DNA of 64,000 nt from an uncultured Chloroflexia bacterium (GCA_963720375.1 CAVRFM010000006.1:4594-68593); one strand, 5' to 3'. Shown: positions 3,584 to 60,730, counted from the stretch's first letter. Program-made: numbers and translations. Notes: a model not told the origin generated them from the letters alone.

Positions 3584-6500
3584 ATGTCAGAACCCGGAAA
3601 TATTATGCGGCTAATCATCGGAGTTCTCCTACTCCCTCTCTTAGTGATGATGCTTCTGCTGATGACTCCTCCTCCCCCTGCCATGGCGGGTACCATTTCT
3701 GGCGGCTTCACCACCCTGACAGCTTCTCCCATGAACATAACTTGTTTTACAGTCGATCCAACAACAGGATTAATGTACGGACAGGGGGATCAGAGTAGCA
3801 CCAACTATTACAGATATGATCCCTCATCAAACCTGTGGTCTACGCTGGCGTCCTGTCCCATCTCCTCGGGGAACAATGGCGGTGCTACCTATATGGATGG
3901 CAAAATATATAACAGTTATTGCACTCATACCGACATGATGGTATACGATATCGCATCCAACACATGGTCAACAATAGCTGGGGGACTGCAGAGCGGAAAC
4001 ATCGCAAATGATGGAACAGATATCTACGTTTCGGCAAATAACTCCTTCAAGAAATGGGATATCAGCGCCAGCCAGTGGGTATCACTCACTGCCACAACCA
4101 CTCAAGCCTGGGGTGGCTTACAATACCATAATGGTTATTTCTATTCTCACGCGGGTAATGGATCCACTTCTTTTAAGAGATATAGTGTCGCCACCGATAC
4201 CTGGGAAAATCTGACCGCTGTCCCGGGTGGAGCGGTCCTTGGTTCGGCAATATTCGATGCCTACTACTACTGTATGGGCTCGTACGGCGGGACAAACCTG
4301 TACTCCTATGACCTGGGCGCCGGAGAGTGGAACAACACTCTGACGCTCCCTTTTACCATTAACGACACCTCTATAGTCGTCTACAATAATTCGTTATATA
4401 TTGTTCAGGGAGAGGCCGGGACTGGCTTTACAAAGTTCACTCCCAATAATCCTATCCTCTCAAGCATCGAAGGAACTTCAATTGCCTATACCATTGGTGA
4501 TGGAGCTGTTGTGATCACCTCAACTATCGTCGGGGCTGATAATGATGACACCAATTTTGAAAGCGGGACCGTTTCGATCACCGGTAATTTCGAAACCGGA
4601 AAGGATGTCTTAGCTTTTGTTGATCAAAACGGTATCTCGGGGAGCTGGAATTCCATAACCGGAGTGCTGACACTCACCGGTTCGGCGACCATTGCCAACT
4701 GGAATACCGCCTTAAGAAGTGTGACTTACTCCAATAATTCCTTAGCTTCAACAGAAAACACGCGGACCGTTTCTTTTCAGGTTAGAGACGGGGAGCAAAA
4801 TTCCAATGTTCAGACAAGAAGTATCGTTGTTACCGTTGCACCCGCCGTGACGCTGACCTCTACGGCCACCTCTCCCACGAATACCTCGCCTATACCCATG
4901 ACGGCCACCTTCAGCGAGGCGGTCACCGGGTTTGTCATCGGCGATATCACCGTGGGCAATGGCACAGCCGACAACTTCGTGGCCGTGAGCGGCACGGTCT
5001 ACACCTTCGATGTGACTCCTTCCGGGCAGGGCGCGGTCACCGTGGATGTGGCTGCCGGCGTGGCCCAGGATGCCGCTCTTAACAACAATACCGCGGCTAC
5101 TCAGTTCAGCATTACCTATGACAGCGTGGCCCCCACGGTCACGCTGACCTCTACGGCCACTTCTCCCACCAAGGTCTCGCCCATCCCCATGACGGCCACC
5201 TTCAGCGAGGCGGTCACCGGGTTTGTCATCGACGATATCACCATGGGCAACGGCGCAGCCGGCAACTTCGTGGCAGTGAGCAGCACCGTCTACACCTTCG
5301 ATGTGACTCCTTCCGGGCAGGGCGCGGTCATCTGTCGATGTGGCTGCCGGCGTGGCCCAGGATGCTGCTCTTAACCCCAATACCGCCGCTACCCAGTTCA
5401 GCATTACCTATGACAGCACCTCACCCACAGTGACGCTGACCTCTACGGCTTCTTCACCCACCAAGACCTCGCCCATCCCCATGACGGCCACCTTCAGCGA
5501 AGCGGTCACCGGCTTTGTCATCGGCGATATCACCGTGGGCAACGGCACTGCCTCTAACTTCGTGGCGGTGAGCGCCACCATCTACACCTTCGATGTCACT
5601 CCCTCCGGGCAGGGCGCAGTCACCGTGGATGTAGCTGCCGGCGTGGCCCAGGATGCCGCTCTTAACAACAATACCGCGGCCACTCAGTTCAGCATTACCT
5701 ATGACAGCACCTCACCCACCGTGACGCTGACCTCTACGGCTTCTTCACCCACCAAGACCTCGCCCATCCCCATGACGGCCACCTTCAGCGAGGCGGTCAC
5801 CGGGTTTGTCATCGGCGATATCACCGTGGGCAACGGCACTGCCTCCAACTTCGTGGCGGTGAGCGCCACCATCTACACCTTCGACGTCACTCCCTCCGGG
5901 CAGGGCGCAGTCACCGTGGATGTAGCTGCCGGCGTGGCCCAGGATGCCGCTCTTAACAACAATACCGCGGCCACCCAGTTCAGCATTACCTATGACAGCA
6001 CCTCACCCACCGTGACGCTGACCTCTACGGCTTCTTCACCCACCAAGACCTCGCCTATCCCCATGACGGCCACCTTCAGCGAGGCGGTCACCGGGTTTGT
6101 CATCGACGATATCACCGTGGGCAACGGCACTGCCTCCAACTTCGTGGCGGTGAGCGCCACCGTCTACACCTTCGATGTCACTCCCTCCGGGCAGGGCGCG
6201 GTGACTGTGGATGTAGCTGCCGGCGTGGCCCAGGATGCCGCTCTTAACAACAATACCGCGGCCACCCAGTTCAGCATTACCTATGACAATCTCCCGACCA
6301 TAACTTCCTTCACGGCGACCTCGACTGACGAGGGCGATGTGGTGATCATCACCGGCACCGACTTCACCGGGGCAACGGCAGTCAAGTTTGGGGACACGGA
6401 TGCCTTAAGCTTCACTGTCGATTCGGACACCCAGATCACCGCTGTGGTAGGCCATGGTAGCAGCGGGAAGATAACCGTGACCACTGATGGCGGCACTGCC

Positions 6501-6890: not shown

Positions 6891-7950
6891 TGTAAGTGTT
6901 ACGTAATTCGAGGACAGAATTCAATGAATTGTGCCGGTGTTTTGCCTCCCAGTGCTTGATGCGGACGGTGGTGGTTATAGTAGACCAGGTACTGCATGAG
7001 CTCATCTTTGAATTGCTCGATCGAGTCAAAGGTTGTTTCATGCAAGAGATCCTCTTCAAGAGTTCTCCAAAAGCGCTCCACCTTGCCGTTGGCCTGAGGA
7101 CGATACGGTCGGGTGTAGCGGTGAGTAATGCCCAGTTCTGTGAGCATGCGTTCAAATGGATGCGAGGCCTTCTGCTTGGAATCGCGGGTGCCCACCTCAG
7201 GACCATTATCTGTGAGCACTTCTTTGAACCGGAGTGTATAGCGGTCAGCCAGGATGTTCAGACAGCGTAGAGCGGCAAACATCACAGTGAGTGCCTTGAT
7301 ATCATCGACCACCTCAGCCCAAGCCACGCGCGTGCAGGAGTCGATGACACAGACCAGGTAACGCCGCTTGCTCTCGTTCAGGACGAGGCATTTGGAGAGA
7401 TGATGGCAGTCGACATGTGCCAACTCCCCAGCTTTCTCCTTGATTATGGTGCGTTTGGCTTCTTTCATGACGGGTCGTAATCGGTTCAACCCCTGGCGCT
7501 TGAGGATGGTGTACACCCCTGATGGCGAGGGTGTCAACTCACCTAGCTTTGGCCTGAGGACACTCACGATCTCATAGCGGTTCATCCCCCTCTCGCGCAG
7601 TGTCCTGACCTGCTCCTCAACAAGGTCGGGAGCTCGGCGGGTTTTCCATTTGGGTCCCCGTTTACGCGGTAGCAGATCCTCCTCTTTCCCACTGTGAAGA
7701 TAGCGATTGTAATATTTGCGGAAGCTCCTCCGGTCTGTGTCGTGGAAGGCATAGAACTCCTGGGCAAAGCGAAACCGTGGGTGCTTCCCAGCCTTGACCA
7801 ATTCATACTCCCGAATCAGGAATCGGTACTTCTGAAGGTAGTTCCTCTTAATGGTCTCATCTTGACTGTTGTTCCTCATCGACGAAAAGCCTCCTTCCCA
7901 GCACATGCTGGTTAGTAGCATTTTCGTCCCCGAAATATGTAACATCTACA
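6891..7950 (-). mobile_element. IS481-family insertion sequence, copy 1 (1060 bp, TGT...ACA ends, 5-bp TSD ATTGC)
   Basis: Imperfect terminal IRs TGTAGATGTTACAT / TGTAAGTGTTACGT; ATTGC at 6886-6890 and 7951-7955. Confidence 0.9.
6899..7879 (-). CDS. IS481-family DDE transposase
   Basis: HVD..D..TDNGPE..HRYTRPYRPQANGKVERF..YN..RPHQALGGKTP; AGGAGG RBS before MRNNSQ. Confidence 0.92.
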   Translation of the reverse strand: MRNNSQDETIKRNYLQKYRFLIREYELVKAGKHPRFRFAQEFYAFHDTDRRSFRKYYNRYLHSGKEEDLLPRKRGPKWKTRRAPDLVEEQVRTLRERGMNRYEIVSVLRPKLGELTPSPSGVYTILKRQGLNRLRPVMKEAKRTIIKEKAGELAHVDCHHLSKCLVLNESKRRYLVCVIDSCTRVAWAEVVDDIKALTVMFAALRCLNILADRYTLRFKEVLTDNGPEVGTRDSKQKASHPFERMLTELGITHRYTRPYRPQANGKVERFWRTLEEDLLHETTFDSIEQFKDELMQYLVYYNHHRPHQALGGKTPAQFIEFCPRIT

Positions 7951-8072: not shown

Positions 8073-8094
8073 TTCCCAAAATTGAATAAGAGAC

Positions 8095-8210
8095 GCAGGG
8101 GTGCCCCGACGGTGACTAGGGGCTTAATTGGGTAGCAAGTCCGGTGAGATTCCGGAGCAGGCCCGCCTGCTGTAACTCGCCTTAGGCGAGAAGCCAGAAC
8201 GCCCACCCCT
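8095..8210 (+). ncRNA. Cobalamin riboswitch
   Basis: GGTG..TTAATTGGG..TCCGGTGAGATTCCGGAGC..GCCCGC.TGCTGTAA..hairpin..AAGCCAGAACGCC, upstream of btuF/cob genes. Confidence 0.85.
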
Positions 8211-8335
8211 ATCCGTCCTGAAGCCTCCGCTGGGAAAGGGGGTGGGACTATGACCCGGGCACCGTGATAATCCCCTTGGCCTTCCGGACAAGGGGATTTA
8301 TTTTTTCCGGTTTCCAAGCTATTGAGGAGGTTCAA

Positions 8336-12636: not shown

Positions 12637-13203
12637 ATGGCTAAGAGATGTATTCTCATTCTGGGCGGGGCCCGGAGCGGCAAGAGCCGTTTTGCCCAGG
12701 AGATGGCGTCGCGCCTGGGTGAGAGGGTGCTCTTTGTGGCCACGGCGGAGGCCCTGGATGAGGAGATGAGACAGAGGATAGAGGAACACAAGAAGGCCCG
12801 TTCTTCAAGCTGGCGTACTATCGAGGCACCCTTCGGCGTGGGGCGAAGAATCCGGGAACAGAGTGGCGATGCCCAGGTGGTTGTCCTGGATTGCCTCACC
12901 CTGCTGGTGTCCAACGTCATTGGCCGGTGCGGCGGTGATCCTGACCGGATCGACACAAAGCTGGTGGATGAGAAGCTGTCATTGGAGGTCAGTGCATTGG
13001 CGGAGTGTATTGAGGACACAGCGGCCAGCTTTGTCCTGGTGAGTAACGAGGTGGGTATGGGGATTGTCCCGCCTAACAGGCTGGGACGGATCTACCAGGA
13101 CTCTCTGGGCAAGGTGAATCAGGAGTTGGCTCAGCGTGCCGACACTGTCTACCTCATGGTTGCCGGTATACCGGTGATGGTCAAAGGGCTGCAGGGCCTT
13201 TGA
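12637..13203 (+). CDS. cobU: Bifunctional adenosylcobinamide kinase / cobinamide-phosphate guanylyltransferase
   Basis: GGARSGKS, ATAEALDEEM..RI..H, LDCLTL, VSNEVGMGIVP. Confidence 0.95.
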   Translation: MAKRCILILGGARSGKSRFAQEMASRLGERVLFVATAEALDEEMRQRIEEHKKARSSSWRTIEAPFGVGRRIREQSGDAQVVVLDCLTLLVSNVIGRCGGDPDRIDTKLVDEKLSLEVSALAECIEDTAASFVLVSNEVGMGIVPPNRLGRIYQDSLGKVNQELAQRADTVYLMVAGIPVMVKGLQGL

Positions 13204-14559: not shown

Positions 14560-14700
14560 GTCATAGTTGCAAGCCTCTGTGTTTGTAATAGCCACGGCCT
14601 TGTAGAACTTCAGGCTATCCCCTTTCTATCCAGGCTGAGGTTGGGTGGTATAATCGTTGAGAGCCAATCATTTTTGACAAGGACATCGGCAGGAATAGTT

Positions 14701-15018
14701 ATGGAGACCGCAGTCACTGTATTCTCGGTTGTTTGGTGTCTCGTGGTTCTTTTCTTCATATATCGCATGTGGAAAGCCCACGAATTGAGGATTGGCATAA
14801 TGAACGATGACCTTGATACCTATATGAGGCTGCCCTCCTATGGTGAGATGGTCTTCAAGTTCTGGAGACCGTGGTCCTCGTTCATCGAGGAGACTCTAGA
14901 GGGCACCCCGGAAGAAGAAGCAACATCGCTTGATACCAGGCAGACGGACGAGGTGATTGTCCCCGGTGAGCACGACCCCGAATCTCCTTCAGGGGCCTTC
15001 CTCAACTCTCAACCCTGA
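14701..15018 (+). CDS. Small hypothetical protein with an N-terminal TM helix and acidic tail
   Basis: ATG 14701 follows a site and TATAAT; lies between two full sites. Confidence 0.6.
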   Translation: METAVTVFSVVWCLVVLFFIYRMWKAHELRIGIMNDDLDTYMRLPSYGEMVFKFWRPWSSFIEETLEGTPEEEATSLDTRQTDEVIVPGEHDPESPSGAFLNSQP

Positions 15019-15172
15019 TAAAGCCAACGGGCAAGGCTTAGTAGAAAGACCTCACCCCACCATCGCCTTGTAGGACTTCAGGCTGTCTCCCCTTTGTATC
15101 CAGGCTGAGGTTCGGATGGTATAATGTCGCAGAGGATTCCAGCCTAATAAACAGAGGCAGGCGAATTTGGAG

Positions 15173-15367
15173 ATGGCTATCATGAGCACCTTTCGGATTC
15201 TCAAGAAAGCGGCAAGAGACATCTATAAGTGGCTAATGAAATACAGCGGCATGACAATGATCATAGATAACGTGGAAGAAAGACGCCGTAAACGAGAAAG
15301 CCTCAATCATTCTGAAGAGCCTTCCGATACCCAATCTACTGCAGACCCTCCATTAAAAGGTAAATAG
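15173..15367 (+). CDS. Small hypothetical protein
   Basis: ORF follows a site and TATAAT; no recognised motif. Confidence 0.4.
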   Translation: MAIMSTFRILKKAARDIYKWLMKYSGMTMIIDNVEERRRKRESLNHSEEPSDTQSTADPPLKGK

Positions 15368-15423
15368 GCTCATTACTGCACAGGGTTAGTAAATTTCACC
15401 TGGACCAGTTCTCGGAGGGCAGG

Positions 15424-16881
15424 TCAATTTCCCTGTTCATCCTCTTTGATGCCAGCCAGGCTCTTCGCTGTTTTCTGCTTACTCTTAATGTCGACCAGGC
15501 GGGATATCATGATCCTCTGTGCCTGTGGCGAACCGGCACCGTGCATGGATTCAGTAAGATATCCTACTGCTGCAGTACCGAGTGTTATATTTTCGATAAG
15601 CCGGAGGATACGCATCCTGTTTTCCGTTGGGATATCGTCCCTCCCTTTGCAATATTTTCTTATCCACTCGCCTACGTCTGCTGATCTCATATCCTCTTCA
15701 GAGGGGAGGGTAACCAGGAGACCGCCTGCGATATCCTGCGCAAGCCTGGCTATTTCATAAGGGAACCGTGTCACATTCTGTTTGTGTACATTTGCGAGGA
15801 GCGTATTAACGTAGTAAGTGCCGCTGGGCTCAGGGTGCCCTTCAGAGGCGCAGGCAATACATCCGCAGTAGAGCGTTTCATTAAGATGATTCATCTCGAT
15901 GATTTTATCTTTCACGTGGGAAGCCTTTTCGATACCATTGTATTCTGCAATCGTCTGTGTCGCGCCTATGAGAACATCGCCGACTCCGACCTTGCAGGCA
16001 TAGCTTTGCCGGTGATACGAGGCGAATTGCTCCACCAGCTGGCCGGAAAAGTCATATTCCTTGTACATGAATACCCGCTCCCATGGAACGAAGACATCAT
16101 TAAATATTATCAACGCTTCGTGTCCTCCGAAATTGATGTTGCCTCGATCGATTTTGCACCCTTCCAGCTTCCTGGTATCGCATGACTGGCGTCCTATGAC
16201 ATAGATTATACCTTTGGTGTCGCTAGGCACAGCAAAGGAAACCGCGTAATCCTTGTCCTCTTCCCTCATGGAAATCGTGGGCATTACAATGACCTCATGG
16301 GAATTCACAGCCCCCGTCTGATGGGCTTTGGCCCCGCGTACCACAATACCGTCCTTTCTTTCTTCGACTACCCTGAGGTACTGGTCAGGATCGGCCTGCT
16401 TGTGCGGCGGCAGGGAACGGTCGCCCTTTGGATCAGTCATGGCTCCGTCGCAGACAAGATCGTTCTCCTGGACATACTCCAGATACTTTAAGAATCTTTT
16501 GTTGTATTCAGTACCGTACTTTGCGTCTATGTCATATGTTGTCATTGACAGGGCATTCAAGGCGTCAATTCCCACGCATCTCTGGAAACAGCATCCTGTC
16601 AGGGAACCAAGCAGCCTGCCCATCTTGCTTTTCTTGACAAGGTCATCAACGCTTTGATGAATATGGGTGAACCGGTTGATTTTTGCCCCTGTGATGTGGG
16701 AAGTCGCTGTCATAATATCTTCATATTTCGGATTACGAGCAAGGGCATAAGTCATGGAAATCGCATTCAGGGATGGTCTGATTATGGGATCATCCACGAC
16801 ATTTTTCACTCTTTTGCCGAACATGTATACTACCAGTTCGAGCTTTCTCAAACTTTCGATGTATTCTTGCGGAGTTTTCAT
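15424..16881 (-). CDS. abfD: 4-hydroxybutyryl-CoA dehydratase (HpaB/AbfD family)
   Basis: CFQRCVG Fe-S motif, DGAMTDPKGDRS, VRGAKAHQTG, YHRQSY, MHGAGSPQAQ. Confidence 0.9.
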   Translation of the reverse strand: MKTPQEYIESLRKLELVVYMFGKRVKNVVDDPIIRPSLNAISMTYALARNPKYEDIMTATSHITGAKINRFTHIHQSVDDLVKKSKMGRLLGSLTGCCFQRCVGIDALNALSMTTYDIDAKYGTEYNKRFLKYLEYVQENDLVCDGAMTDPKGDRSLPPHKQADPDQYLRVVEERKDGIVVRGAKAHQTGAVNSHEVIVMPTISMREEDKDYAVSFAVPSDTKGIIYVIGRQSCDTRKLEGCKIDRGNINFGGHEALIIFNDVFVPWERVFMYKEYDFSGQLVEQFASYHRQSYACKVGVGDVLIGATQTIAEYNGIEKASHVKDKIIEMNHLNETLYCGCIACASEGHPEPSGTYYVNTLLANVHKQNVTRFPYEIARLAQDIAGGLLVTLPSEEDMRSADVGEWIRKYCKGRDDIPTENRMRILRLIENITLGTAAVGYLTESMHGAGSPQAQRIMISRLVDIKSKQKTAKSLAGIKEDEQGN

Positions 16882-17188
16882 AAATCTTTTACTCTCCTTC
16901 GATAAATCTTTCTCCATAATTCAATGCCGCGTTGACCTGCCCCAAGTATTTGTACCACTTCTTAGGCCGCAGTTGCCAGCCTCCTCTGTGTTTGTAACAG
17001 CCACCGCCTTGTAGGACTTCAGGCTGTCCTCACCAATAGAGTGGACAGAGATGTCCAGCCTTGTCTTTTCTTCAGTATCAGCCAACCCCTTTTGTATCCA
17101 AGCTGAGGTTGTGGGTGTATCATGTCACTGAAGGCAATCTGCTGATGGTACTTCCGCTGCTAAATGGAAGGTAGAAAGGGGCTTTGCT

Positions 17189-17407
17189 ATGGCGAAGGGA
17201 ACAATCAAGAAACTAATTAGAGACAAGGGCTATGGGTTCATCCAAACTGAGGAGGGGAAAGAGCTTTTCTTTCACCGGAATCAGCTTCAAGGTGTGGACT
17301 ATTCTTCTCTCAAGGAAGGCCAAGAGGTAGAATACGAGGCTGGCACTGGGCGTGGTGACCGCCCAGAGGCTACCAAGGTGAAGCTACCACAACCCAAGAC
17401 TGAATAG
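17189..17407 (+). CDS. Cold-shock domain protein
   Basis: KGYGFI..LFFH RNP motifs. Confidence 0.9.
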   Translation: MAKGTIKKLIRDKGYGFIQTEEGKELFFHRNQLQGVDYSSLKEGQEVEYEAGTGRGDRPEATKVKLPQPKTE

Positions 17408-17521
17408 CACTCACCCCACCAGTGCTTTGTAGAACTTCAGACTGCCCGAGATAGTTTTGTGGTATAATGTCTCCATGGTGATTTTCCTATGAGAATTACT
17501 TCTGCGTGTACTTGAGGGTAA

Positions 17522-17665
17522 ATGGCTGCCAAAGGTGTTGTCCACCAAGCCCACCACTGGATGATAGACACTCTGCCTAAGAACGGCTTGTACCACGCCA
17601 TGTGCAGGAAGTGCGGCGCAGAAAAGGATTTTCCCCAGAGGAGCCTCGCTTCAGATTCAGTATAG
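17522..17665 (+). CDS. Small His/Cys-rich protein (possible Zn ribbon), 47 aa
   Basis: Manual translation MAAKGVVHQAHHWMIDTLPKNGLYHAMCRKCGAEKDFPQRSLASDSV; GAGGG RBS; fills a cassette. Confidence 0.55.
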   Translation: MAAKGVVHQAHHWMIDTLPKNGLYHAMCRKCGAEKDFPQRSLASDSV

Positions 17666-17943
17666 ATAGAAAGCCAGTTGCACCATCAGCCATAGAACCA
17701 CCTGACTTGAGTGGCACTTCTGTACATGATAGATGTGCCTGAGCCAGGCTCGTCCCAAGTCCCCTAGCGGTATCACTACAGGAACCCTGGGACAAGCCTT
17801 AACCTCCAGCATCACCCCGGCAGCACCCTGTAGAACTTCAGCCTGTCCTCATTGGTTGACATTCTCTATTGCCTGTGTGCTATTATCCTAGATGACTTCT
17901 ACATATAGGTATGTATAGAGTCGGAAGCAGGAAGGAGAGTGGC

Positions 17944-18090
17944 ATGGTCAAGAAGAGAGTGCGCAACCCGGTTACTCACAAATACTATGCCCAGCAGCAA
18001 AGGGATGGGAGACTGAGACGAGGTCAGTTCGTCGGTCTCTGGCATCCTCCCAAGAGAAAACCAAAGGAGGCCCAGATTCCGCAGGCTTAG
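17944..18090 (+). CDS. Small basic hypothetical protein, 48 aa
   Basis: MVKKRVRNPVTHKYYAQQQRDGRLRRGQFVGLWHPPKRKPKEAQIPQA; AAGGAG RBS; TTGACA...TATTAT upstream. Confidence 0.6.
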   Translation: MVKKRVRNPVTHKYYAQQQRDGRLRRGQFVGLWHPPKRKPKEAQIPQA

Positions 18091-18211
18091 GCCGCAATTC
18101 TCCCTACAGTCCTCTACTAAGCTATCTTTCCATCAAAGCTGAGGTTGGGGTGGTACAATGGTGGCAGGCGGGTCACACCAAGGAGAAGGTGCGGGAAGAA
18201 ATGGAGGACAG

Positions 18212-18712
18212 ATGGATAGCATCCTGGACGTGATTGTCTCACGAAGAAGTGTCAGGAAGTGGAAATCCGATGCGGTCTCTGATGGCGACATCAAGGACAT
18301 ACTCGAAGCGGCGATGAATGCCCCATCGGCGGTGAATGAGCAAGCATGGCAGTTCGTGGTGCTGAACGGTAAGATGCTCGAAGACTTTGTGAAAATCAAC
18401 GGCAATACTCCCAAAGGCTCACCCGTGGGGATCCTGGTTTGCGGCGACAAGAAGCTGGACAAGCTCGGGGGATTCTATCTGCATGACTGTTGTGCTGCCA
18501 CGCAGAACATTCTTCTCGCGGTTCATGCTAAAGGACTGGGAGGAGTCTGGACTGCCATCTTCCCCAACGCTATTCCGGAAGTGCGCAAGCTGCTGAATCT
18601 GCCGGACCACGTCATCCCACTCGCCTTCGTTCCTTTTGGATACCCCGTCTCAGAGCGGCCCAAACCGGCCAGCCGATACGACGAAACGAAGGTGCACAGA
18701 AACGGCTGGTAG
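18212..18712 (+). CDS. Nitroreductase family protein
   Basis: SRRSVRKW, APSAVNEQAW, QNILLA..GLGGVW; GGAGG RBS. Confidence 0.9.
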   Translation: MDSILDVIVSRRSVRKWKSDAVSDGDIKDILEAAMNAPSAVNEQAWQFVVLNGKMLEDFVKINGNTPKGSPVGILVCGDKKLDKLGGFYLHDCCAATQNILLAVHAKGLGGVWTAIFPNAIPEVRKLLNLPDHVIPLAFVPFGYPVSERPKPASRYDETKVHRNGW

Positions 18713-19417
18713 GCTCTCCAGGTGCGGTGCTTAGCAGGACTTCAGGCTGTCCTGACCAATACCTTTCTGGAACTCTGAAACCATGCACATTATGTCCATA
18801 TCTACCAACCATCAACCTTTCCCCAAACGTCATGCTCGTGCATAGTAAACTTGACAGGTCTATGCAGGCATGTTACAATCACACCACGATATTCGTAGTG
18901 CGATGGGATATCCACTCCCACCCAACAAACAAAAGGAGGGAGGAGAAAGACAAGATCTGGAATACGGAAGGCTGCGGATATCCATTCACAGGAAGAGCAG
19001 CCTACTAACTAGATGGCTGGCAGTCAGTTCAATTTTATTGAAAGGGGGGTGAACATGACTCCGGGGTGTGAGTCGTGTTGCTGACTGACCAGCCATCCTT
19101 ATTTAGTTCAGATACATCAGAGCAAAATCTACGACTACGCGCTGCCATGCTTAGAGGATAAACCCGTTTGGACACCATCGCCTTGTAGAACTTCAGCCTG
19201 TCCTCCTTTCTGTCCAAGCTGAGGTTGTCTGACACAAAACTCCATGTAAGATAACTTCCCTGACAGCAAGCATTTACTGTGCCTTTACCATTCTTGTGCT
19301 AAGGTATACACAGGCGAGCAGATGGGGTCGATTGATGAAGCGGGTCGCAGATAGAACGAAGTCCCTGACAGGCTGTGCATACCTGATCAAGGGCCACAAA
19401 TAACATAGGAGGGCAAC

Positions 19418-19534
19418 ATGCGGCATGCACGTGAAGGTATGGGCTGGTGGGTAGGGTTGATGATCGGCATAGTGACGTTTCTTGTCTGGGCAGGGTCTAC
19501 TGAGCTAGTTGTCCGGGTTATCCCACACTTGTGA
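19418..19534 (+). CDS. 38-aa single-TM ORF, truncated relative of the SHOCT gene
   Basis: GGAGGG RBS; MRHAREGMGWWVGLMIG...; decayed SHOCT-coding sequence follows the stop. Confidence 0.4.
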   Translation: MRHAREGMGWWVGLMIGIVTFLVWAGSTELVVRVIPHL

Positions 19535-19984
19535 ACCACGGTGACTCAGGATCAGCGGGCAGGGGAAATGGTGCTTTGACAATAGCTAGAGGAACGCTAC
19601 GCCCGAAGAGAGATCACCAAGGAAGAATTCGACCGGATCAAGAAAGGTCTGTCATAGAGCACTACGAGGTATTGGAAACGCCTTAGAAAGACTCCCCCCA
19701 CGTCCTTTCTAAGCCAGAGAAGCCCATCTGTGAAGGTGGGCTTCTTCTATTCCCTGAATCCCAAACCCACCATCGCCCTGTAGAACTTCAGGCTGTCCTG
19801 AAAAACTCTAATCATTTTCTAAGCATCTCCTAATCCGGATTTAATGCAAGACCGGATGCCCTTCGGTAGAATGAAAGTGTCTTTGAGAGGTTATCCCCCT
19901 TTCTGAAGTGCCAAGTGACAGAAGTCGCATACCTTGTATCGATAGGGTAATACAATATTGGAATGGTGCAGAGGAGGTGTAGAC

Positions 19985-20233
19985 ATGATGTGGGAGCATT
20001 GGCATGAAGGTGTAGGTGCCTGCGGTGGTTGGGGTGTAGGATGGATTATTGGTCTATTCTTTCTGGCAGTCGTCGTTGGACTGATTACTTGGGGCATTGT
20101 GGTACTGGTAAGACACGGTAGATCAGGATCAGCGGGCAGGGGAAATGGTGCTTTGGCCATAGCCAGAGAACGCTATGCCCGAGGAGAGGTCTCCAAAGAA
20201 GAATTCGACCGGATCAAGAAAGACCTGTCGTAG
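19985..20233 (+). CDS. TM plus SHOCT-domain protein
   Basis: ALAIARERYARGEVSKEEFDRIKKDL; GGAGG RBS; hairpin terminator near 20257-20282. Confidence 0.85.
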   Translation: MMWEHWHEGVGACGGWGVGWIIGLFFLAVVVGLITWGIVVLVRHGRSGSAGRGNGALAIARERYARGEVSKEEFDRIKKDLS

Positions 20234-20508
20234 TTCACTCTGAAGCATGTCACCGAAGCCCATCTGCATAAGGTGGGCTTTCGTCATCTCCGTCTCCCCA
20301 GCACCGCCTTGTATGACTTCAGGTTGTCCTGAAAAACTCTAATCATCTTCTAAGCATTTTCCAATCCAGACCTAAGCTTAGCCCGGTATGCTGAGGGTGG
20401 CTTTGAGGAGAAGGAGAAGACACAGTGAAACAGACCGGCAAACTGGAACAGCAAGAGGCGTATCAGAGCATCATCAAGGGCCACAAATAACAAGACCAGG
20501 AGGGCAAC

Positions 20509-20622
20509 ATGCGACATGAAAGCGGAGGTATGGGTTGGTGGGTGGGCTTGACGATCGGTATAGTGACGTTTCTTATCTGGGCAGGGTCTACGGCGCTGAT
20601 TGTCCGGGTTATCGGACGCTAG
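20509..20622 (+). CDS. 37-aa single-TM ORF, paralog of 19418..19534
   Basis: MRHESGGMGWWVGLTIGIVTFLIWAGSTALIVRVIGR; GGAGGG RBS. Confidence 0.4.
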   Translation: MRHESGGMGWWVGLTIGIVTFLIWAGSTALIVRVIGR

Positions 20623-20757
20623 TGAACCATGGTGACTCAGGATCAGCAGGCTGAGGTTGGGGGTGTATGGTGTATAATAGTGCAAGGTGCGATGGCACGG
20701 GCCGCGCATGGATGCAGCCGATGGCGTGGATAAGCTGATGCCCGTGAGGAGGTAGAC

Positions 20758-21072
20758 ATGAAGGACCATCCCCACTGCTATCATATCAACTTCGCTCATG
20801 AGACAGAGACATGCTGCTGGTGCTCTGACATACGCAAGCTCAAATTCGGGCAGGGTCACCTTGACCGTGACGTTGGCATGACGATTCCGCTAGTGAGCGT
20901 CTGGTGGTGGCGGTATAATCCCAAAATGTATGCCTTGTACGAGCACGTCAAGCAGTTTGGCACACCTGAGACCGCGCATGGACCGTATGGCATCCAAGAT
21001 GGTTTGTTTGTCGAGTACGCTGACGAAGACCTATGCTCGATGAGAAAGCAACCTTTGGAAGGAGTACCTTAG
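20758..21072 (+). CDS. Hypothetical protein
   Basis: GAGGAGG RBS; lies between sites; no recognised family. Confidence 0.6.
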   Translation: MKDHPHCYHINFAHETETCCWCSDIRKLKFGQGHLDRDVGMTIPLVSVWWWRYNPKMYALYEHVKQFGTPETAHGPYGIQDGLFVEYADEDLCSMRKQPLEGVP

Positions 21073-21255
21073 GAGACTCAGGAGAAGCCGAAGACGTCAA
21101 AGCAGTCCTTTTACCTCACCCCACCAGCGCCTTGTAGAACCTCACGCTGTCTCCTCCTTCTGTGTCCAGGCTGAAGTTGACACCCTCCGTCGCATCGTGA
21201 TACTGTCCGTTGGGGCTCCCACCCTGCGGCCCAAGAATCGATACACGGGGTTTTC

Positions 21256-22128
21256 ATGAGAATAATCGCCACCTGGTACGGCACAGCAGCGCTTCACCTC
21301 GTCGCGGAAGATAGTCTGGGGATCTTCTTCGATCCCTGGTTTGAAAGGCCCCTGAATGCCAGGCCCAGGATCGTGGCTGATCCCAGGAACATCAAGCTGG
21401 AGCCACTCGACGTGATCTTTGTGAGCCACAGTCACTTCGACCATGTTTACAACCTGCCGGACTTAGTACAACGCTACCCTGCTGTCCATGCCTACGTGCC
21501 GGCACTGACGGCTGAGAATTGCCGGAAGCTGTCCAGTGGGGCGATCTTCAAGGACCACGTCTGCAAATTGTCAGAAAATGACTGGGAACGCGTCCACACC
21601 GTTGCAGCGGGAGACCACGCAGAGCTCTCATCCCGGGATGGCAGTGTTCGGTTGCGGGCCACGGCCATAAAATCGGGCCATGTGAGGTTTGATGTCTATT
21701 CTGTCCTTCGCGTGCTCTTCAACTACAGAGTGATCCGGGGATTCGCATACTATGCGAAGTTCCTTCTTGGATTCCCCGCGAAGGATGTGCTGGGCTGGGA
21801 ACTGCAACTGGAGACTGCCAGGGAATCCAGGCGCATCGTGTTCTTCGGCAGTCTCTGCAGGCAATACTCCCATATCCTGCTGCAATATGCCGGCTGTGAT
21901 TGTCTTGTTCTCCCTCTAGCCGGAAGGAGAAATATCCTACCGTACGCCAGCATAGTGACGGGAGTCTTACGGCCCAAGGCGGTAATCCCGGTGCACCATG
22001 ATGATTTCTTCCCTCCGATCTCCTATCCCGTTGACTACCGCAACTACTCGAAGTGGCTCAAGGAGAATTTCCCCGGGACAAGGCTGATTGAATTGCAGCC
22101 CGAACAACCAACGAGTTTCTTGATGTGA
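21256..22128 (+). CDS. MBL-fold metallo-hydrolase (UlaG-like)
   Basis: FFDPW, SHSHFDH, IPVHHDDFF. Confidence 0.85.
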   Translation: MRIIATWYGTAALHLVAEDSLGIFFDPWFERPLNARPRIVADPRNIKLEPLDVIFVSHSHFDHVYNLPDLVQRYPAVHAYVPALTAENCRKLSSGAIFKDHVCKLSENDWERVHTVAAGDHAELSSRDGSVRLRATAIKSGHVRFDVYSVLRVLFNYRVIRGFAYYAKFLLGFPAKDVLGWELQLETARESRRIVFFGSLCRQYSHILLQYAGCDCLVLPLAGRRNILPYASIVTGVLRPKAVIPVHHDDFFPPISYPVDYRNYSKWLKENFPGTRLIELQPEQPTSFLM

Positions 22129-38423: not shown

Positions 38424-41400
38424 ATGAACAAAGGAACGGTGAAAACAGGCATTGATATCATCGGTGATGTCCCCTGGGGCACCCACCTCTGCCAGTTCTA
38501 CCGGACAAAGGACGATTTGATCGACATCCTGGTGCCCTATTTCAAGGCCGGCCTGGAAGGCAACGAATTCTGTCTGTGGGTTACGGCACTCCCCCTCACC
38601 GAAGAGGATGCCCGCGAAGCAATGGCACAGGCTATGCCCGATTTTGGCCGGTATGTGGAAAAGGGCCAGATCGAGATCGTGCCCTATGACCGGTGGTATC
38701 TCAGAGACGGCGTTTTCGATTCGGAACGGGTCATCGGCAGCTGGTTTGACAAGCTGGATGGCGCTCTGGCCAGGGGCTACTCCGGCATGAGGCTAACGGG
38801 TAACATAGCGTGGCTCAAGAAAAGCGATTGGGGACGGTTCATTGATTACGAGGAGAAAATTGCAGGATTCTATCCCCCGTCATCCCATTGTAGGTCTTTG
38901 CTCCTACCGTCTTAGCAGAGTCGGGATAGCCGAAGCCATCGATGTGGTCAAGAACCACCACTTTGCTCTTGTAAAGCGGAACGGCAAATGGGAACTCGTC
39001 GAGAACTCCGATCACGGCAGGATGGAGAAGACGCTGAAGGAGCTGGGCAAGGAGCGCCGGCCGCGGGTCTCATTCAAGGGCACACGCGATGGCATGCTTA
39101 TCGTCGATGCCGAAACCATGAAGGTAGAGCTGGCCAATGAGGCTGCTGCCAGAATCTGCGGATTCGATTCTGCAGAGGACATGGTTGGACTGAATCTATT
39201 CTCCCTCCTTCGCATGGGCGATAGAGAGCGGGTTATCAAACTGGCGAACCGGAATGTGCCTGAGAAGGGCCTCCATAAGGTGAAGGAACTTCGGACATTG
39301 ACAGAGGATGGCAGGGAGATCTGGATCAGCACTCTTGGCAGGAGGATCGAATACCAGGGCAGATCGGCATTTCTGGTCTTTATGAGAGATATCACTGAGC
39401 GCACCAGGGTGGAAGAGGAGTTGCGGGCATTGGAGAAAGAAAATCGTCTGCTGGTGGAGAACGCCGGTGAGATCATCATTGTGGTGCAGGATAAGAGGCT
39501 GAAGTTTGTTAACCACAAAGCCGCGGCGATATCAGGTTATTCAGATAAAGAGATGACCTCCAGGCCCTTTGCGGATTTCATCCATCCTGATGACCGGCAG
39601 ATGGTAACGGATCTCTATTTCAAGAAGCTAAAGGGCGAGGAAACTCCCCCTGATGCAACCTTCAGAGTCATTGCTAAAGACGGTAAGGTTATATGGTCAG
39701 AGCTCAAGTCGGTTCTCTTCACCTGGGAAGCGAAACCGGCTGTCTGGTGTTTTCTGAATGACGTCACCGAACACAAACAGGCAGAGGAGGCGTTGAGGGC
39801 TTCGGAAGAGAGAAACCGCCTGCTGGTAGAGAATGCCATTGAAGGCATTGCGGTGATTCAGGATGGGGAGTTGGTCTTTGCCAATCCCCAGGTCATCGAG
39901 GTCATGGGCTACCCGGAGGCAGGGCAGTCCTCCAGACCCGTGACGGAGTTGATCCATCCTGATGATCGGCAGATGGTGATGGAACGCCTTCTTGGCGTGC
40001 TGGGGGGTCAAGACAGGCCTGGCATTTTCTCTTTCAGAATCCTTGATAAAGAGGGCCAGACGAGGTGGGTGGAAGCCAACCTGGTCTCATTCAACTGGAA
40101 CGGCAGGCCGGCCATCTTAAGTCAGGTGGAAGACGTCACCGAACACAAAGTGGCGGATGAAGAGATTCGCCATCTGGCTAACACCACCCCGGTACTGGTA
40201 GAGTTCATCTGAAGGCGAGGTGCTTTTCATCAACCCTGCGATGCATAAGTCCATCCAGCAATGGCCATCATGATCCCGCCAGATTATCCCTTTGAATGGC
40301 CAGACCTCACCCGACAGTTGCGGAAAGTAGACGTCCAGGAGCTCCAACTCGCCGGGCGGATTTTCGAGGAGCGATCTGCTTTACCCCGAGTTCCAACTTT
40401 GCGGATTTATCAACGGATATCACGGGCGCAAAGGTAGAGGAGGAACTGAGGGCTTCAGAGGAGAATATCGTCTGCTGGTAGAGAACGCCTATGAAATGAT
40501 TGTAGTGGTCAGGATGGTAAGGTGTCTTTACGAATCCCCAATGTGCGCAGGTGTTCGGCTATACGGAAGAAGAGATGGCTGCCAGACCCTTTATAGAGTT
40601 CATTCACCCTGACAATCAGGGACAGCGATGGAATACTACACCAAGAGGCTGGAGGGCAAGGAAGTCCCCAGCGCCTATTCTCTCAGAATCATGGACAAAG
40701 AGGGCAACGCAAAGTGGACGGAGGCCAATACGGTCTTGCTCACCTGGAAGGGAAGGCCGGCTATCCTGGGTCTGGTAACCGACGTCACCGAGCGCAAGAG
40801 GGCGGAGGAGTCCCTCGCAGAGAGCGAGAAACGCTACCGCTTTATAGCCGAGAATGTGTCAGACGTCATCTGGGCCATCGATACGAACCTGCGGCTTACC
40901 TATTTCAGCCCCTCCATCACCAAGATGAATGGCTACAGCGTCGAGGAAAACATGGCCCGTGGGATAGAAAAGAGCTTGAGTCCTGCCTCCCTTGAAGCCG
41001 TCTCAGGGATAGTCATGAGAGAATTGGCAAAGAAAGGCAAGCCAAACACGGCCACACTGCTGACTCCGGTGACGGCGGAGATAGAACACAAGGACGGCTC
41101 CAAAATCTGGGCCGAGTCTGCGGGGACCCTGCTGCGTGATTCAGATGGAAAGCCTGTTGAGATTGTGGGAGTACTGCGCGATATCACCGAGCGCAAGAAG
41201 GCAGAGGAGGAACTGCAACGTAAGGAACAACACTTCCGGGCGCTGATAGAGAATTCTTCCGATGGCATTGCTGTCGTAAACCGTGATGGAAGCAGCCGCT
41301 ACATCAGTCCATCCCTCGCGCGTATGCTGGGATACGATTTAGGAGAACGGATTGTAATGAGCATGTTGAATCGTGTTCATCCGGATGATATCAAGCTGGT

Positions 41401-43535
41401 ATCTGATACCTTCACCCGGTTGGCACAGAATCCGGGTACCACGATGCGGGCTGAGGTAAGGGTCCAGCACAAGGACGGCACATGGCGTACGGTCGAGGCT
41501 ACGGGCACTGCTCTTCTCCACGATCCGGCTGTTGATGGCATTGTCGTCAACGTCCGTGATATCACCGAGCGCAAGAAGGTAGAGGAGGAACTGCAACATC
41601 AAGGAACAACACTTCCGGGCACTCATAGAGAACTCTTCAGATGGTATCTCAGTCGTAGACCGTAATGGAACCGTTCTATACAACAGTCCATCCATCGGGC
41701 GTATGTTAGGATTCACACCCGAAGAACGAATTGGCCGCAACATGTTGGCGTTCGTTCATCCGGATGATATCCAGCTTGTATCTGATACCTTTGTCAGGTC
41801 GCTGCAGAATCCAGGTATTACTATGCAGATTGAGGTGCGCCTCCAGCACAAAGACAGTACCTGGCGCACAATCGAGATCGCAGCCATTAACCTCCTTCAT
41901 GATCCGTCTGTTGAGGGCATTGTCGTCAACGTCCGTGATATCACCGAGCGCAAGAAGGCAGAGGAGGAAATACAACGTCAGCAGAAACACTTCAGGGCGC
42001 TCATAGAGAACGCTTCAGACGCTATAACAATCGCAGGTGCTGATGGAACAATCAGCTACGAGAGCCCATCATGCGAGCGTATGTCGGGATTCAAGCCGGA
42101 GGAACGCATCGGTGCCAACATGATCGAACGCGTTCATCCGGATGATATCAAGCTTCTATCTGATACCTTCTCCCGGTTGATACAGCATCCGGGTAGCACC
42201 ATGCGGGATGAGATACGGCTCCGGCACAAAGACGGCACATGGCTCACAGTTGAGGCTACGGTCACCAATCTTCTTCATGATCCCGCTGTCAATGGCGTTG
42301 TGGTCAATCTCCGCAACATCACCGCGCGCAAGAGGGCTGAGGAGGCACTACGGGAATACGGGCACAAAATCAGGGCCATTTTTGACGGTGCATATGATGG
42401 ATTCATTAGCGTGGACTGCCAAAGCAGGAAGTTCTTTGAACCAAATAGAAGAATGATTGAGATGCTGGGATATGAATCTGAAGAAGAAATGAAGGATCTC
42501 ACAGTCTCGGATATACATCCCGAGAAAGACCTGCCATACATTCTGGGAGAGTTTGAAAAACACGTGAAGAGAGAGATTTCACAATCTGAAGATATGCCTG
42601 TGAAAAGAAAGGATGGCAGCGTTTTCCTTGCTTCCATCAGTTCATCCCCGGTAACCATAGCCGGGAAGACGTATCTATCGTGCATCTTTAGAGATATCAC
42701 CGAGCGCAAGAGGATCGAGGACGAACTGAGGGTATACCGCGAACATCTGGAGGATCTGGTGGAGGAGCGCACGGCAGAGCTGGTGATCGCCAAAGAAAGG
42801 GCCGAAGAAGCCGACCGGATCAAGTCAACCTTCCTGGCAGCCATGTCCCACGAGCTGCGCACCCCGCTCAACTCCATCATTGGTTTCAGCGGCATCATGC
42901 TGCAGGGCCTGGCCGGTCCCCTGAATCCCGAACAGACCAAGCAGTTGAAGATGGTACAAAGCAGCGGCCAGCACCTGCTGGCGATCATCAACGACATCAT
43001 AGATATCTCCAGGATTGAAGCCGGGCGGATTGAACCCCACCCTGAGCTGTTTGAACTGCGTCAACAGATCGACGAGACCATAGCGGCGATTAAACCCATG
43101 GCCGATGAGAAGAATCTCACTCTGGTGGCTGAGGTGGCACCGGAGGTGGGCCATATTAACAGCGATCCGCGCCGGGTGTCACAGATTCTCCTGAATCTCG
43201 TCGGCAATGCCATCAAGTTCACGGACAGGGGTGGAGTGCGCGTCGAATGCAGGCATAGCGGCGGCCGGGTGGAGATACGCATTGCAGACACAGGCATCGG
43301 CATCAAGCCGGAGGACATGAAGTATATCTTCCAGACTTTCCGGCAGATTGACAATGGCCTGACCCGCCTGAGGGAGGGCAGCGGACTGGGGCTGGCTATC
43401 TGCAAGGGGTTGGCCGAGCTTCTGGGCGGTGAGATCCGGGTGGAGAGCGAATTCGGGGTGGGCAGTACCTTTACGTTGATCCTGCCCATCAGCAGGGAAG
43501 GCAAATGGAATGAAGAAAAGGATACTCATCATTGA
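38424..43535 (+). CDS. Very large sensor histidine kinase: MEDS domain, about ten PAS/PAC units, HisKA and HATPase; several frameshifts (may be two genes)
   Basis: PWGTHLCQFY (MEDS); repeated PAS units; FLAAMSHELRTPLNSI; NLVGNAIKFT; DTGIGI; GSGLGL; GVGSTF. Confidence 0.8.
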
Positions 43536-43854
43536 GGACAACGAGCATAACCTGTACCTCATGACGTTCATCCTGGAAAAGAAGGGGTACGAGGTGGTTT
43601 CGGCGCGCGATGGCCGTCAGGGCATTGCGCTTGCCGGACAGGCCAAACCGGCGCTGATCCTCCTCGACATCCAGTTGCCCATCCAGAACGGCTATTCTCT
43701 GTCGCGGGAGCTGAGGCGAACCCCGGCGCTCGCCGGCGTCCCTATCGTAGCCGTGACTTCCTACGCCATGGCTGGCGACCGGGACCGGATACTGGCGGCC
43801 GGCTGCACGGGCTGCATTGAGAAGCCGATCAAGACGGATACGTTTCGCTGCTGA
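43510..43854 (+). CDS. CheY-like response regulator, frameshift near the 3' end
   Basis: KRILIIEDN, LLDIQLP, IEKPI. Confidence 0.88.
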   Translation: MKKRILIIEDNEHNLYLMTFILEKKGYEVVSARDGRQGIALAGQAKPALILLDIQLPIQNGYSLSRELRRTPALAGVPIVAVTSYAMAGDRDRILAAGCTGCIEKPIKTDTFRC

Positions 43855-43898
43855 AATTGAGCGATACCTGTCCAACTGCCCGGGAGATGAGAGGGATT

Positions 43899-48467: not shown

Positions 48468-48650
48468 GCAATGACATTTGAACAGGGGCGCTTCGCGAAG
48501 CACCCCTAAACCTGTTGTCATTCCCGTGCAAACGGGAACCCAGAAGGGAATGCCCATAATTCCCTCTACCTTTGATGGGAGAGGGCTAGGGTGAGGGTGA
48601 TGTTTTCCCCTCCCTCTATCTCCCTCCCGCCAAGGGAGGGAGAATGACCA
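48468..48650. repeat. REP-like palindrome cluster
   Basis: GGGGCGCTTCGCGAAGCACCCC, ATTCCC-N8-GGGAAC and CCCTC..GGGAGAGGG stems. Confidence 0.7.
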
Positions 48651-60393: not shown

Positions 60394-60547
60394 TAATCAC
60401 CCCCTCGCCCTCTGTTTGGTGACTCCACACCAAACGAAGAGCAAAGCATGCCTATGCCTAAATGTAACGCTTTCTCTCCGGCATGGCAACCTCTCTCCCG
60501 TTATTCCAACGTCGTAGGTGCGCTTAGCGCAGTGCCCCTCCACCTGC

Positions 60548-60730
60548 TGTCATTCCCACGAACGTGGGGATCCAGGAGGGGATATCTGCAATTCCTTCTC
60601 CCTTCGATGGGAGAGGGCTAGAGTGAGGGTGATGTTTCCCCCTCCCTCTGCCTCCCTCCCGCCAGGGGAGGGAGAACGGATGGATTCCTGCTTTCGCAGG
60701 AATGACAGATGCAAAAACGGGAATGACATG
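60548..60730. repeat. REP-like palindrome cluster
   Basis: Same families as at 3020-3200 and 48468-48650. Confidence 0.7.

Follow-up and report, generated by a model that had tools for sequence, protein, structure and literature searches.

In a 64-kb stretch of Dehalococcoidia DNA (CAVRFM010000006.1:4594-68593, hereafter the window), we analysed an array of small gene cassettes separated by repeats, the copies of which span 14.6-21.15 kb. This is probably an array without a recombinase of its own, in which the cassettes are bounded by sites derived from the tail of a recombinase gene and are moved by a family of Xer-like tyrosine recombinases. Sequence comparison reveals that the left half of these sites, the left arm, is homologous to the tails of such recombinases, and the arrangement as a whole points to an integron-like gene-capture system. 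Literature searches aimed at this system found no published description of it, and it seems to be undescribed.

The array consists of about ten units lying between cobU (12637-13203, the end of a cobalamin operon) and a gene for an MBL-fold protein (21256-22128). Its GC content is 47-53%, as compared to 55-63% in the flanks, a sequence signature suggestive of foreign character that we counted in favour of the above interpretation. Small genes with no relation to each other occupy the stretches between the repeats: they encode two membrane proteins assigned to no family, an HpaB-family enzyme, and cold-shock-domain, nitroreductase and SHOCT-domain proteins, alongside several open reading frames (ORFs) of fewer than 110 aa, and the SHOCT gene has a frameshifted second copy. 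Rfam and tRNA scans revealed no tRNA or tmRNA in the window and no Rfam family in the array.

The left arm is a copy of the end of a recombinase gene

Scanning the window with the 21-nt left-arm core CTTGTAGAACTTCAGGCTGTC, allowing up to three mismatches, gave nine matches between 14599 and 21151 (starting at 14599, 15067, 17008, 17426, 17827, 19182, 19777, 20308 and 21131), every one on the plus strand and none elsewhere in the 64 kb. The chance expectation is 0.02, and none of 100 shuffles reached nine. A first-pass annotation of this DNA had listed nine copies, each of which lay at the position claimed; that list lacked a tenth, more diverged copy at 18731-18751 (TTAGCAGGACTTCAGGCTGTC, repeat family D9), which reads DSLKSC* and brings the co-oriented left arms to ten in total. 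The minus-strand peptides reported for the arms were reproduced, as were a TGA in register after the Gly of four copies (15.06k, 17.42k, 17.82k and 21.13k) and an Ala codon that is GCC, GCG or GCA among the copies.

We then looked for the source of this sequence. Scanning metagenome contigs with the left-arm pattern returned at least 120 stretches, and in at least seven of these loci an open frame of 112-378 codons terminates in the core. Three of the loci were tested; all encode a PF00589 protein (E 1e-24 to 2e-25) with an N-terminal helix-turn-helix, ending in ...HTFRRTFACLLRKAG.DTMTIKDLGRWESLEMVQRYTRSVTFxDSLKFYKAPL[S/G]*. Left-arm DNA is identical at 21 of 21 bases to the 3' end of intact recombinase genes on these contigs, so that the left arm is a copy of the last 11 codons and stop of the gene, as the first-pass annotation had proposed for the left half of each site. 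Among species-representative genomes, the core was found on about ten contigs of Dehalococcoidia metagenome-assembled genomes, at the end of a long gene in none of them; the other matches came to about the ~17 expected by chance, a figure estimated from database size and pattern degeneracy.

A protein search retrieved 1735 homologues at E <= 1e-10, with source names, where given, mostly Chloroflexota, Chloroflexi or Dehalococcoidia. Among the best 120 homologues, 94 had a tail that fits a strict DSLKFYK-type pattern, and the remainder that we inspected carried close variants. The peptide is the extreme C-terminus of PF00589 proteins from Dehalococcoidia/Chloroflexota and not the end of a housekeeping gene, an outcome named beforehand as fatal to the idea, and the motif TF(E/Q)DSLKFYKA given in the first-pass annotation is correct. 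In a 35-member alignment (A1), the catalytic residues R199, H279, R282 and Y314 are invariant, giving the R..HxxR..Y signature in full-length relatives, while the tail residues D322, S323, Y327 and L331 show little or no variation. Archaeal XerA is the best match both in NCBIfam (131 bits, cut-off 220) and in the PDB, and scores on the IntI profiles are low (30-51 bits on TIGR02249, cut-off 265; 23-31 bits on PRK15417, cut-off 435), indicating by profile a family that is Xer-like and not IntI.

One diverged member differs at 5 of the 21 bases of its tail DNA and still encodes DSMKFYKAPLS. Since the peptide is kept despite this divergence, we consider it ancestral to the gene, with the repeat descending from the gene and not the reverse; the tail peptide thus appears to be an old, selected part of the enzyme. 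It lies past the catalytic tyrosine in the alignment to XerA, and the equivalent C-terminal segment of Cre, XerD and lambda Int touches the neighbouring protomer. A structure model (mean predicted local distance difference test score, pLDDT, of 80; below 50 at residues 296-316 around the catalytic tyrosine; about 65 for the tail, a short helix) is compatible with a mobile C-terminal segment and says little more.

The copies themselves no longer behave as genes. Variation of the Ala codon had been read as a sign of coding sequence, an argument that failed: among 53 copies not ascertained by the search pattern, differences at codon positions 3/2/1 numbered 57/52/44 (chi-square p = 0.43), and among the window copies 7/10/2. 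Lacking codon periodicity, the copies are therefore not evolving like coding sequence at present, and periodicity was rejected as a proof of coding origin, which follows instead from homology to real genes. The best-conserved bases of the arm are in TTCAG and GTAG, as if selection acted on the DNA and not on a protein, and the left arms of the window are non-coding fossils or sites, not coding ends. Among the matches listed, 28 of 165 non-redundant arms run into recombinase coding sequence and 102 into other DNA; a stop codon is in register in 17 of 26 arms joined to recombinase sequence and in 47 of 101 with other DNA next, rates well over chance, yet decayed.

Junctions at the recombinase gene

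If cassettes use the recombinase tail as a site, breaks in similarity should fall at its edge, which the first-pass annotation had placed just before (E/Q)D. Three contig pairs share a left flank and left arm, followed either by a recombinase-coding stretch (intact only in L048) or by unrelated DNA, and in each pair (L042 vs L132/L038/L120, L048 vs L080, L131 vs L077) identity ends 0-6 nt past the Asp codon, beyond CTGTC. These breaks fit the predicted place of crossover; the exact point is not fixed by such comparisons, as the whole 45-75-nt segment from the left arm to TATAAT is common to the sites, and cleavage points are therefore not readable from them.

Locus L070 carries a tRNA-Met, an intact recombinase gene ending HDSLKFYKAPLG*, a promoter, a small gene and a second tail, DSLQFYKAPLS*, in which the likeness begins exactly at the Asp codon. 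This layout fits the product expected had a cassette entered at the tail, and is one clean example. No joints were seen at this intact locus in contigs of four groundwater runs (depth ~6). Elsewhere, L136 has an intact recombinase gene followed by a short older tail, and in L149 the left arm of a cassette runs into a recombinase fragment of ~30 codons. Recombinase 3' fragments of many lengths (~24-120 codons) are abundant. Recombinases or their fragments also lie within ~30-1200 nt of tRNA genes: at L070 (964-1036) and L048 (19-92), both tRNA-Met, at L136 (9687-9774, Leu) and at L156 (9795-9869, Val), the last adjoining an integrase fragment and not an intact gene. L001 (1731-1800) and L004 (~1190-1235) each have a tRNA, or what remains of one, with nothing but the tail 25-105 nt further on, which gives the impression of a precise loss of the gene body.

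Right arms, complete sites and promoters

The right-arm repeat TCCAGGCTGAGGTTG occurs seven times in the array region. It lies 9-13 nt to the right of a left arm at four sites (14.6k, 15.1k, 19.2k and 21.15k) and 68 nt to the right at a fifth (17.0k), while right arms at 18133 and 20645 have no adjoining left arm. Its core CAGGCTGAGGTT is an imperfect inverted repeat of the left-arm sequence AACTTCAGGCTG. A typical unit begins with a pyrimidine-rich loop and a right arm (TCCARGCTGAGGTTG, inverted repeat of AACTTCAGGCTG), followed by its own promoter, a small gene and a left arm. Among the matches listed, a right arm falls within 6-34 nt of the left arm in 35 of the 165 non-redundant arms, at 16 nt or less in 34 of these. 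The consensus of the 34 distinct complete sites reads tcaccccaccagcgC CTTGTAGAACTTCAGGCTGTC, then a C/T-rich spacer of 6-16 nt (mode 10) ending in TGTA, then TCCAAGCTGAGGTTG.

At 22 of the 34 sites, a -10-like element comes next or the TTG of the arm starts a TTGACA. In the window, five of the eight TGNTAYAAT motifs in 64 kb fall in the array, all on the plus strand and just ahead of ORFs. A two-hexamer promoter scan showed no enrichment (9 found vs 8.3 expected), the extended -10 motif alone being enriched. We also considered the right arm and its long form (below) as diverged recombinase coding sequence and rejected this, alignments to seven recombinase 3' regions being mostly at z < 3 relative to shuffles.

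Co-oriented small genes parted by imperfect inverted repeats raise the question of an ordinary integron array that has lost its integrase (a cluster of attC sites lacking an integrase, CALIN), in which the complete sites would be attC, processed as folded single strands by an IntI whose gene lies elsewhere. Many right arms also end in GTTGGGT, a match to the GTTRRRY box that would suit a CALIN. We nevertheless regard this explanation as very nearly negligible. The left box reads GTAGAAC, which does not complement the right box; attC-like hairpins were tried and rejected, with energies no better than those of shuffles on either strand and ten single-strand DNA folds at z -1.4 to +0.8; the sites are conserved in sequence, not structure; the cassettes bring their own promoters; and the related recombinase is not IntI (41 bits on TIGR02249). 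With a spacer of variable length and a weak hairpin, the sequences argue for recognition of double-stranded sequence rather than of a folded attC-like substrate.

A long form of the right arm was also observed, consisting of GGGCAGAGATGTCCAnCCTTGTCTTTTCTTCAGTATCAGCCAA followed by the loop and right arm (window 17029-17111; L034 6381-6515; L143; L149, flipped, 80-170). Outside the window it opens arrays that begin right behind chromosomal genes, with no left arm, past cobU in L034 and L143 and past the MBL-fold gene in L149, and it may be the primary chromosomal entry site.

Cassettes are modular, reshuffled and over-represented

We compared the array with the metagenome loci that carry the core and with assembled contigs from four freshwater and peat metagenomes (runs X1-X4). 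The cobU flank is common to the window, L034 and L143 at ~94% identity, and L034 shares four cassette blocks with the window (91-94% identity) and has them in a changed order: the nitroreductase and non-coding cassettes, then the cold-shock cassette, then the 104-aa gene, with first array cassettes that differ from those of the window. The cold-shock cassette (17086-17446) was recovered from five contigs, where it has five distinct neighbours on the left and four on the right; the part in common extends from the pyrimidine-rich loop, ahead of the right arm, through the last base of the left arm. In contigs of runs X1-X4, left-arm ends are connected to right-arm starts in numerous combinations, among them 15081 to 17086, 21151 to 17091, 19798 to 17091, 17848 to 17093, 22171 to 17041 and 19764 to 20298. 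The block 15088-17085 and the SHOCT unit 19765-20297 are both missing from contigs of X2 and X3.

The same cassettes are found in different species-level bins and metagenomes, and dozens of other contigs among the matches listed carry co-oriented runs of left and right arms, mostly a few hundred to ~2000 nt apart. In X1, the summed contig depth of some cassettes is 532-666 as compared to 62-64 for the cobU flank, about nine times higher. The cassettes are thus modular and reshuffled, and over-represented relative to the flanking genes.

These observations bear on two other explanations. The array could be a graveyard of serial integrations, in which recombinase-carrying islands each left a tail copy as an attachment (att) site and deletions removed the rest, the cassettes being leftovers. 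The commonness of 3' fragments, the tRNA genes beside recombinases, as with island integrases, the tRNA-then-tail remnants of L001 and L004 and the arrays without a recombinase would all be expected of such a history. Random decay, however, would give neither a shared 5' module nor precise boundaries, whereas the units, 350-1100 nt long, keep their limits from one context to the next, open with a conserved right arm and a promoter, and reach depths far over those of the flanks; we therefore hold this explanation to be rather unlikely.

Alternatively, the arms could be intergenic promoter repeats, or repeats like repetitive extragenic palindromic (REP) elements, reshuffled by homologous recombination and acquired by some recombinase genes at their 3' end. 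The tie between right arm and promoters would suit this, as would a 45-75-nt repeat long enough for occasional homologous exchange, the absence of a coding-type substitution pattern among the copies and the presence of other REP-like families in the window. We judge it quite improbable, since the tail peptide is kept family-wide, diverged-DNA members included, which makes the gene the source, and since breaks cluster at one arm edge and the same cassettes cross species-level bins and metagenomes.

A proposed mechanism and the evidence against it

Our preferred interpretation remains that of tail-derived sites served by the Xer-like family. The left arm is most likely the conserved half of the site used by these recombinases, and the window array was most likely built by repeated recombination at such sites and is now without a resident enzyme. 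We infer that the recombinase family moves the cassettes and that these insert in the recombinase's own tail. In the model, family recombinases encoded elsewhere in the genome or on other elements would cleave and rejoin DNA at the left arm's right edge or just next to it. Cassettes would move as circles carrying a joined left-right site and would enter any resident site. The recombinase gene's own tail would be one such entry site, where insertion would swap the last 11 codons for the cassette's copy; the L070 layout and the clustering of junctions suggest this role of the enzyme tail as entry point, and its renewal by cassettes.

Several observations weigh against this. Neither the 64-kb window nor L034, its orthologous locus, contains a recombinase gene. 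Most intact recombinase genes are not accompanied by an array, and L151 and L152 are solitary on long contigs with no arms nearby. No intact recombinase was seen with a cassette-type KAMVG or KALVG tail, a second protein search yielding only fragments of 30-77 aa. Among the matches listed, just 11 of 33 cassette-type arms, those with a right arm next, have the stop in register, and with about one third in place, not all cassettes would be able to give a working tail. A spacing between the arms that ranges over 6-16 nt is not what one would expect of a rigid two-arm core site. The assembled contigs showed no circular cassette and no direct excision product, the joints come from assembled contigs of different populations and not from reads of one culture, homologous recombination between the 45-75-nt repeats could give some of the rearrangements, and the metagenome loci were ascertained by an exact left-arm pattern.

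The proposal of the first-pass annotation that the site overlaps the recombinase's 3' end, each cassette supplying a new tail, consequently stands in part. Tail homology and L070 speak for it, and the empty window, the array-less genes and the decayed stops limit it. The cargo and further sites that were anticipated downstream of the recombinase are likewise present at L070 and absent from most intact genes.

Features of the array

Table 1. Position and content of the cassette-array features, in window coordinates.
Feature	Position	Strand	Description
Left arm 1	14597-14619	-	DSLKFYKAVA..., no in-place stop; complete left-right site with 14629-14643
Right arm 1	14629-14654	+	TCCAGGCTGAGGTTG, then extended -10 TGGTATAAT at 14646-14654
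Small membrane protein cassette gene	14701-15018	+	No Pfam match; ~94% identical in L034 and L123, with another left neighbour there
Left arm 2	15052-15087	-	Fossil tail DSLKSYKAMVG*
Right arm 2	15099-15125	+	With TGGTATAAT (15117-15125)
Cassette gene, 66 aa	15167-15367	+	No Pfam match
HpaB-family flavin monooxygenase or dehydratase gene	15424-16917	-	Sole minus-strand gene of the array
Left arm 3	17006-17028	-	EDSLKSYKAVAV..., no in-place stop
Long right-arm element	17029-17111	+	57-nt insert (17029-17085), loop, right arm 3 (17097-17111)
Cold-shock-domain cassette unit	17086-17446	+	Loop and right arm, TGTATCAT, gene 17189-17407, left arm 4
Left arm 4	17411-17446	-	Fossil tail SLKFYKALVG*; no right arm after; TGGTATAAT at 17460-17468
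Cys-rich cassette gene, 47 aa	17522-17665	+	Read by eye
Left arm 5	17812-17847	-	Fossil tail DRLKFYRVLPG*; then TTGACA 17856-17861 and TGCTATTAT 17878-17886 (by eye)
Basic cassette gene, <=59 aa	17911-18090	+	Lies past left arm 5, ahead of the lone right arm (18133)
Lone right arm	18133-18159	+	No adjoining left arm; then TGGTACAAT (18151-18159)
Nitroreductase-family cassette gene	18215-18712	+	
Left arm 6	18731-18751	-	Diverged, DSLKSC*
Cassette without long ORF	18752-19181	+	Strong promoter 18851-18879; structured 217-nt transcript (predicted); 9-codon ORF 19056-19085
Complete left-right site 7	19182-19227	+	Left arm 19182-19202 (EDRLKFYKAMV...), right arm 19213-19227
Small transmembrane ORF and SHOCT-domain remnant	19419-19660	+	ORF 19419-19534; frameshifted remnant 19531-19660; families D14, D19
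Left arm 8	19777-19797	-	FQDSLKFYRAMVG...; no right arm after
SHOCT-domain membrane protein cassette gene	19958-20233	+	
Left arm 9	20308-20328	-	FQDNLKSYKAVLG...
Small transmembrane ORF, second copy	20509-20623	+	Family D14
Lone right arm	20645-20659	+	Fused to truncated copy of SHOCT gene region; family D19
Cys/His-rich cassette gene, 104 aa	20758-21072	+	~94% identical in L034, there directly after the cold-shock cassette
Left arm 10	21116-21151	-	Fossil tail DSVRFYKALVG*
Right arm 10	21165-21204	+	Right arm 21165-21179; its TTG opens a TTGACA-16-GATACT promoter-like site before the MBL-fold gene at 21256

Two parts of the array merit description in their own right. The cassette at 18752-19181 has a near-consensus promoter with TG, and its predicted 217-nt transcript folds at z -3.95 relative to shuffles. 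Its short ORF, MTPGCESCC (MTPGSESCC in L034), lies within a long hairpin, the cassette reaches the top depth of all in run X1, and it has no Rfam match; judging from the sequence, it could be a small RNA or leader-peptide element. Further along, a duplication inside the array (19419-20660) has produced the transmembrane ORF twice and the SHOCT gene in an intact and a frameshifted copy. In its third copy, the duplicated segment is joined to a right arm (...GATCAGC/AGGCTGAGGTTG, 20640-20659), which looks like recombination between the right arm and a look-alike within the SHOCT gene.

Comparison with known systems

As in integrons, a tyrosine recombinase family is tied to arrays of small, mostly co-oriented and functionally unrelated genes, an imperfect inverted-repeat site bounds each gene, the same cassette appears in different arrays, orders and positions, and arrays without an adjacent integrase occur. 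The recombinase here is Xer-like and outside the IntI family, however, and the sites are conserved in sequence without a stable hairpin, lacking the R''/R' complementarity of attC (RYYYAAC / GTTRRRY). One half of the site comes from the coding end of the recombinase itself, an extended -10 or TTGACA stands at the start of most cassettes in place of the one platform promoter of integrons, and where array and recombinase are adjacent (L070), the array is 3' of the gene and not upstream. The system thus appears integron-like in outcome and departs from integrons in integrase family, attC structure and promoterless cassettes.

Attachment within the 3' end of a protein gene, with incoming DNA supplying or altering the C-terminus, occurs for phage 21 and e14 at icd and in mycobacteriophage integration-dependent immunity. 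The target in these cases is a host gene or repressor, not the recombinase, and there are no cassette arrays.

A closer parallel is offered by the SSV-type 'suicidal' integrases (SSV1, pTN3, pT26-2), which carry the site inside the integrase frame so that recombination parts the gene, an arrangement stated in a 2021 review to occur only in archaea (PMC8371274). The site described here may likewise lie within the integrase's own reading frame: in our contig comparisons, the repeat equals the last 11 recombinase codons and junctions cluster at its inner edge. The SSV-type enzymes are archaeal with PF16795 (Phage_integr_3), while those described here are bacterial and Pfam gives PF00589 only. Theirs are split into inactive N- and C-terminal halves, whereas here only the last 11 codons lie past the junction and the partner site can give an equivalent tail, so that the gene need not be inactivated. 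We put forward, tentatively and as the less probable case, that this is a bacterial, non-suicidal counterpart, in which the site would be the integrase's last 11 codons, circular single-gene cassettes would carry a promoter and a replacement tail, and arrays would spread and persist without the integrase. A site inside a bacterial integrase gene, if true, would contradict the archaea-only statement (PMC8371274).

Tycheposons combine a tyrosine recombinase beside a tRNA gene with repeated integrations that push older elements inward, leaving integrase fragments and extra att copies scattered in the island (10.1101/2020.12.28.424599). A tRNA-adjacent integrase is shared by relatives only (L070, L048 and L136, and a fragment in L156), not by the window. 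The repeated att of tycheposons is a partial tRNA, whereas here it is the integrase tail in an array without tRNA fragments, and the units are single-gene cassettes with a shared 5' arm. Within the same bacterial class, Dehalococcoides has ssrA islands in tandem, with the 3' end of the tmRNA gene directly repeated between them (PMC3146451). These resemble the present array in being tandem units parted by gene-3'-end repeats; as described there, the islands span many kilobases with a tmRNA repeat, while the array holds single-gene units and no tmRNA sequence.

Other features of the window

Two IS481-like transposase ORFs of 348 aa each, with identical N-termini, lie in inverted orientation at 6899-7945 (-) and 47413-48459 (+), bracketing ~39.5 kb that include the cassette array; the pair may mark a composite element or serve as a substrate for inversion. 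Palindromic intergenic repeats of three families were found at 23981-60577 (8-9 copies, core GTCATTCCCGTGCAAACGGGAATCCAG), 3017-60557 (8 copies, GGGCGCTTCGCGAAGCGCCC) and 27180-60633 (5 copies, CCCTCTCCCTTTGATGGGAGAGGGCTGGGGTGAGGGTGAT). They often adjoin each other, as at 48484-48644 and 60516-60676, which are 81% alike, and look like REP elements or miniature inverted-repeat transposable elements (MITEs). A cobalamin riboswitch (8082-8224; 38.4 bits, gathering threshold 31.5) precedes the gene for a substrate-binding protein and cobT-cobS-cobC-like-cobU. Five 291-nt tandem repeats lie within a surface-protein gene (4839-6303), and runs of a ~375-nt repeat at 39374-45954 correspond to PAS domains in very long sensor kinase genes.

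Significance

To our knowledge, integrons are the sole well-studied system for site-specific assembly of single-gene cassette arrays, and they rely on one integrase clade and a folded attC. A second system, built on an unrelated, Xer-like recombinase and sequence-conserved sites, would, if true, mean that cassette capture evolved more than once. Dehalococcoidia are abundant in sediments, peat and aquifers, hard to culture, and important for organohalide and carbon cycling, and the system would give a handle on gene flow among them. The 45-75-nt repeats also break metagenome assemblies of this group, and knowing their structure aids binning and annotation.

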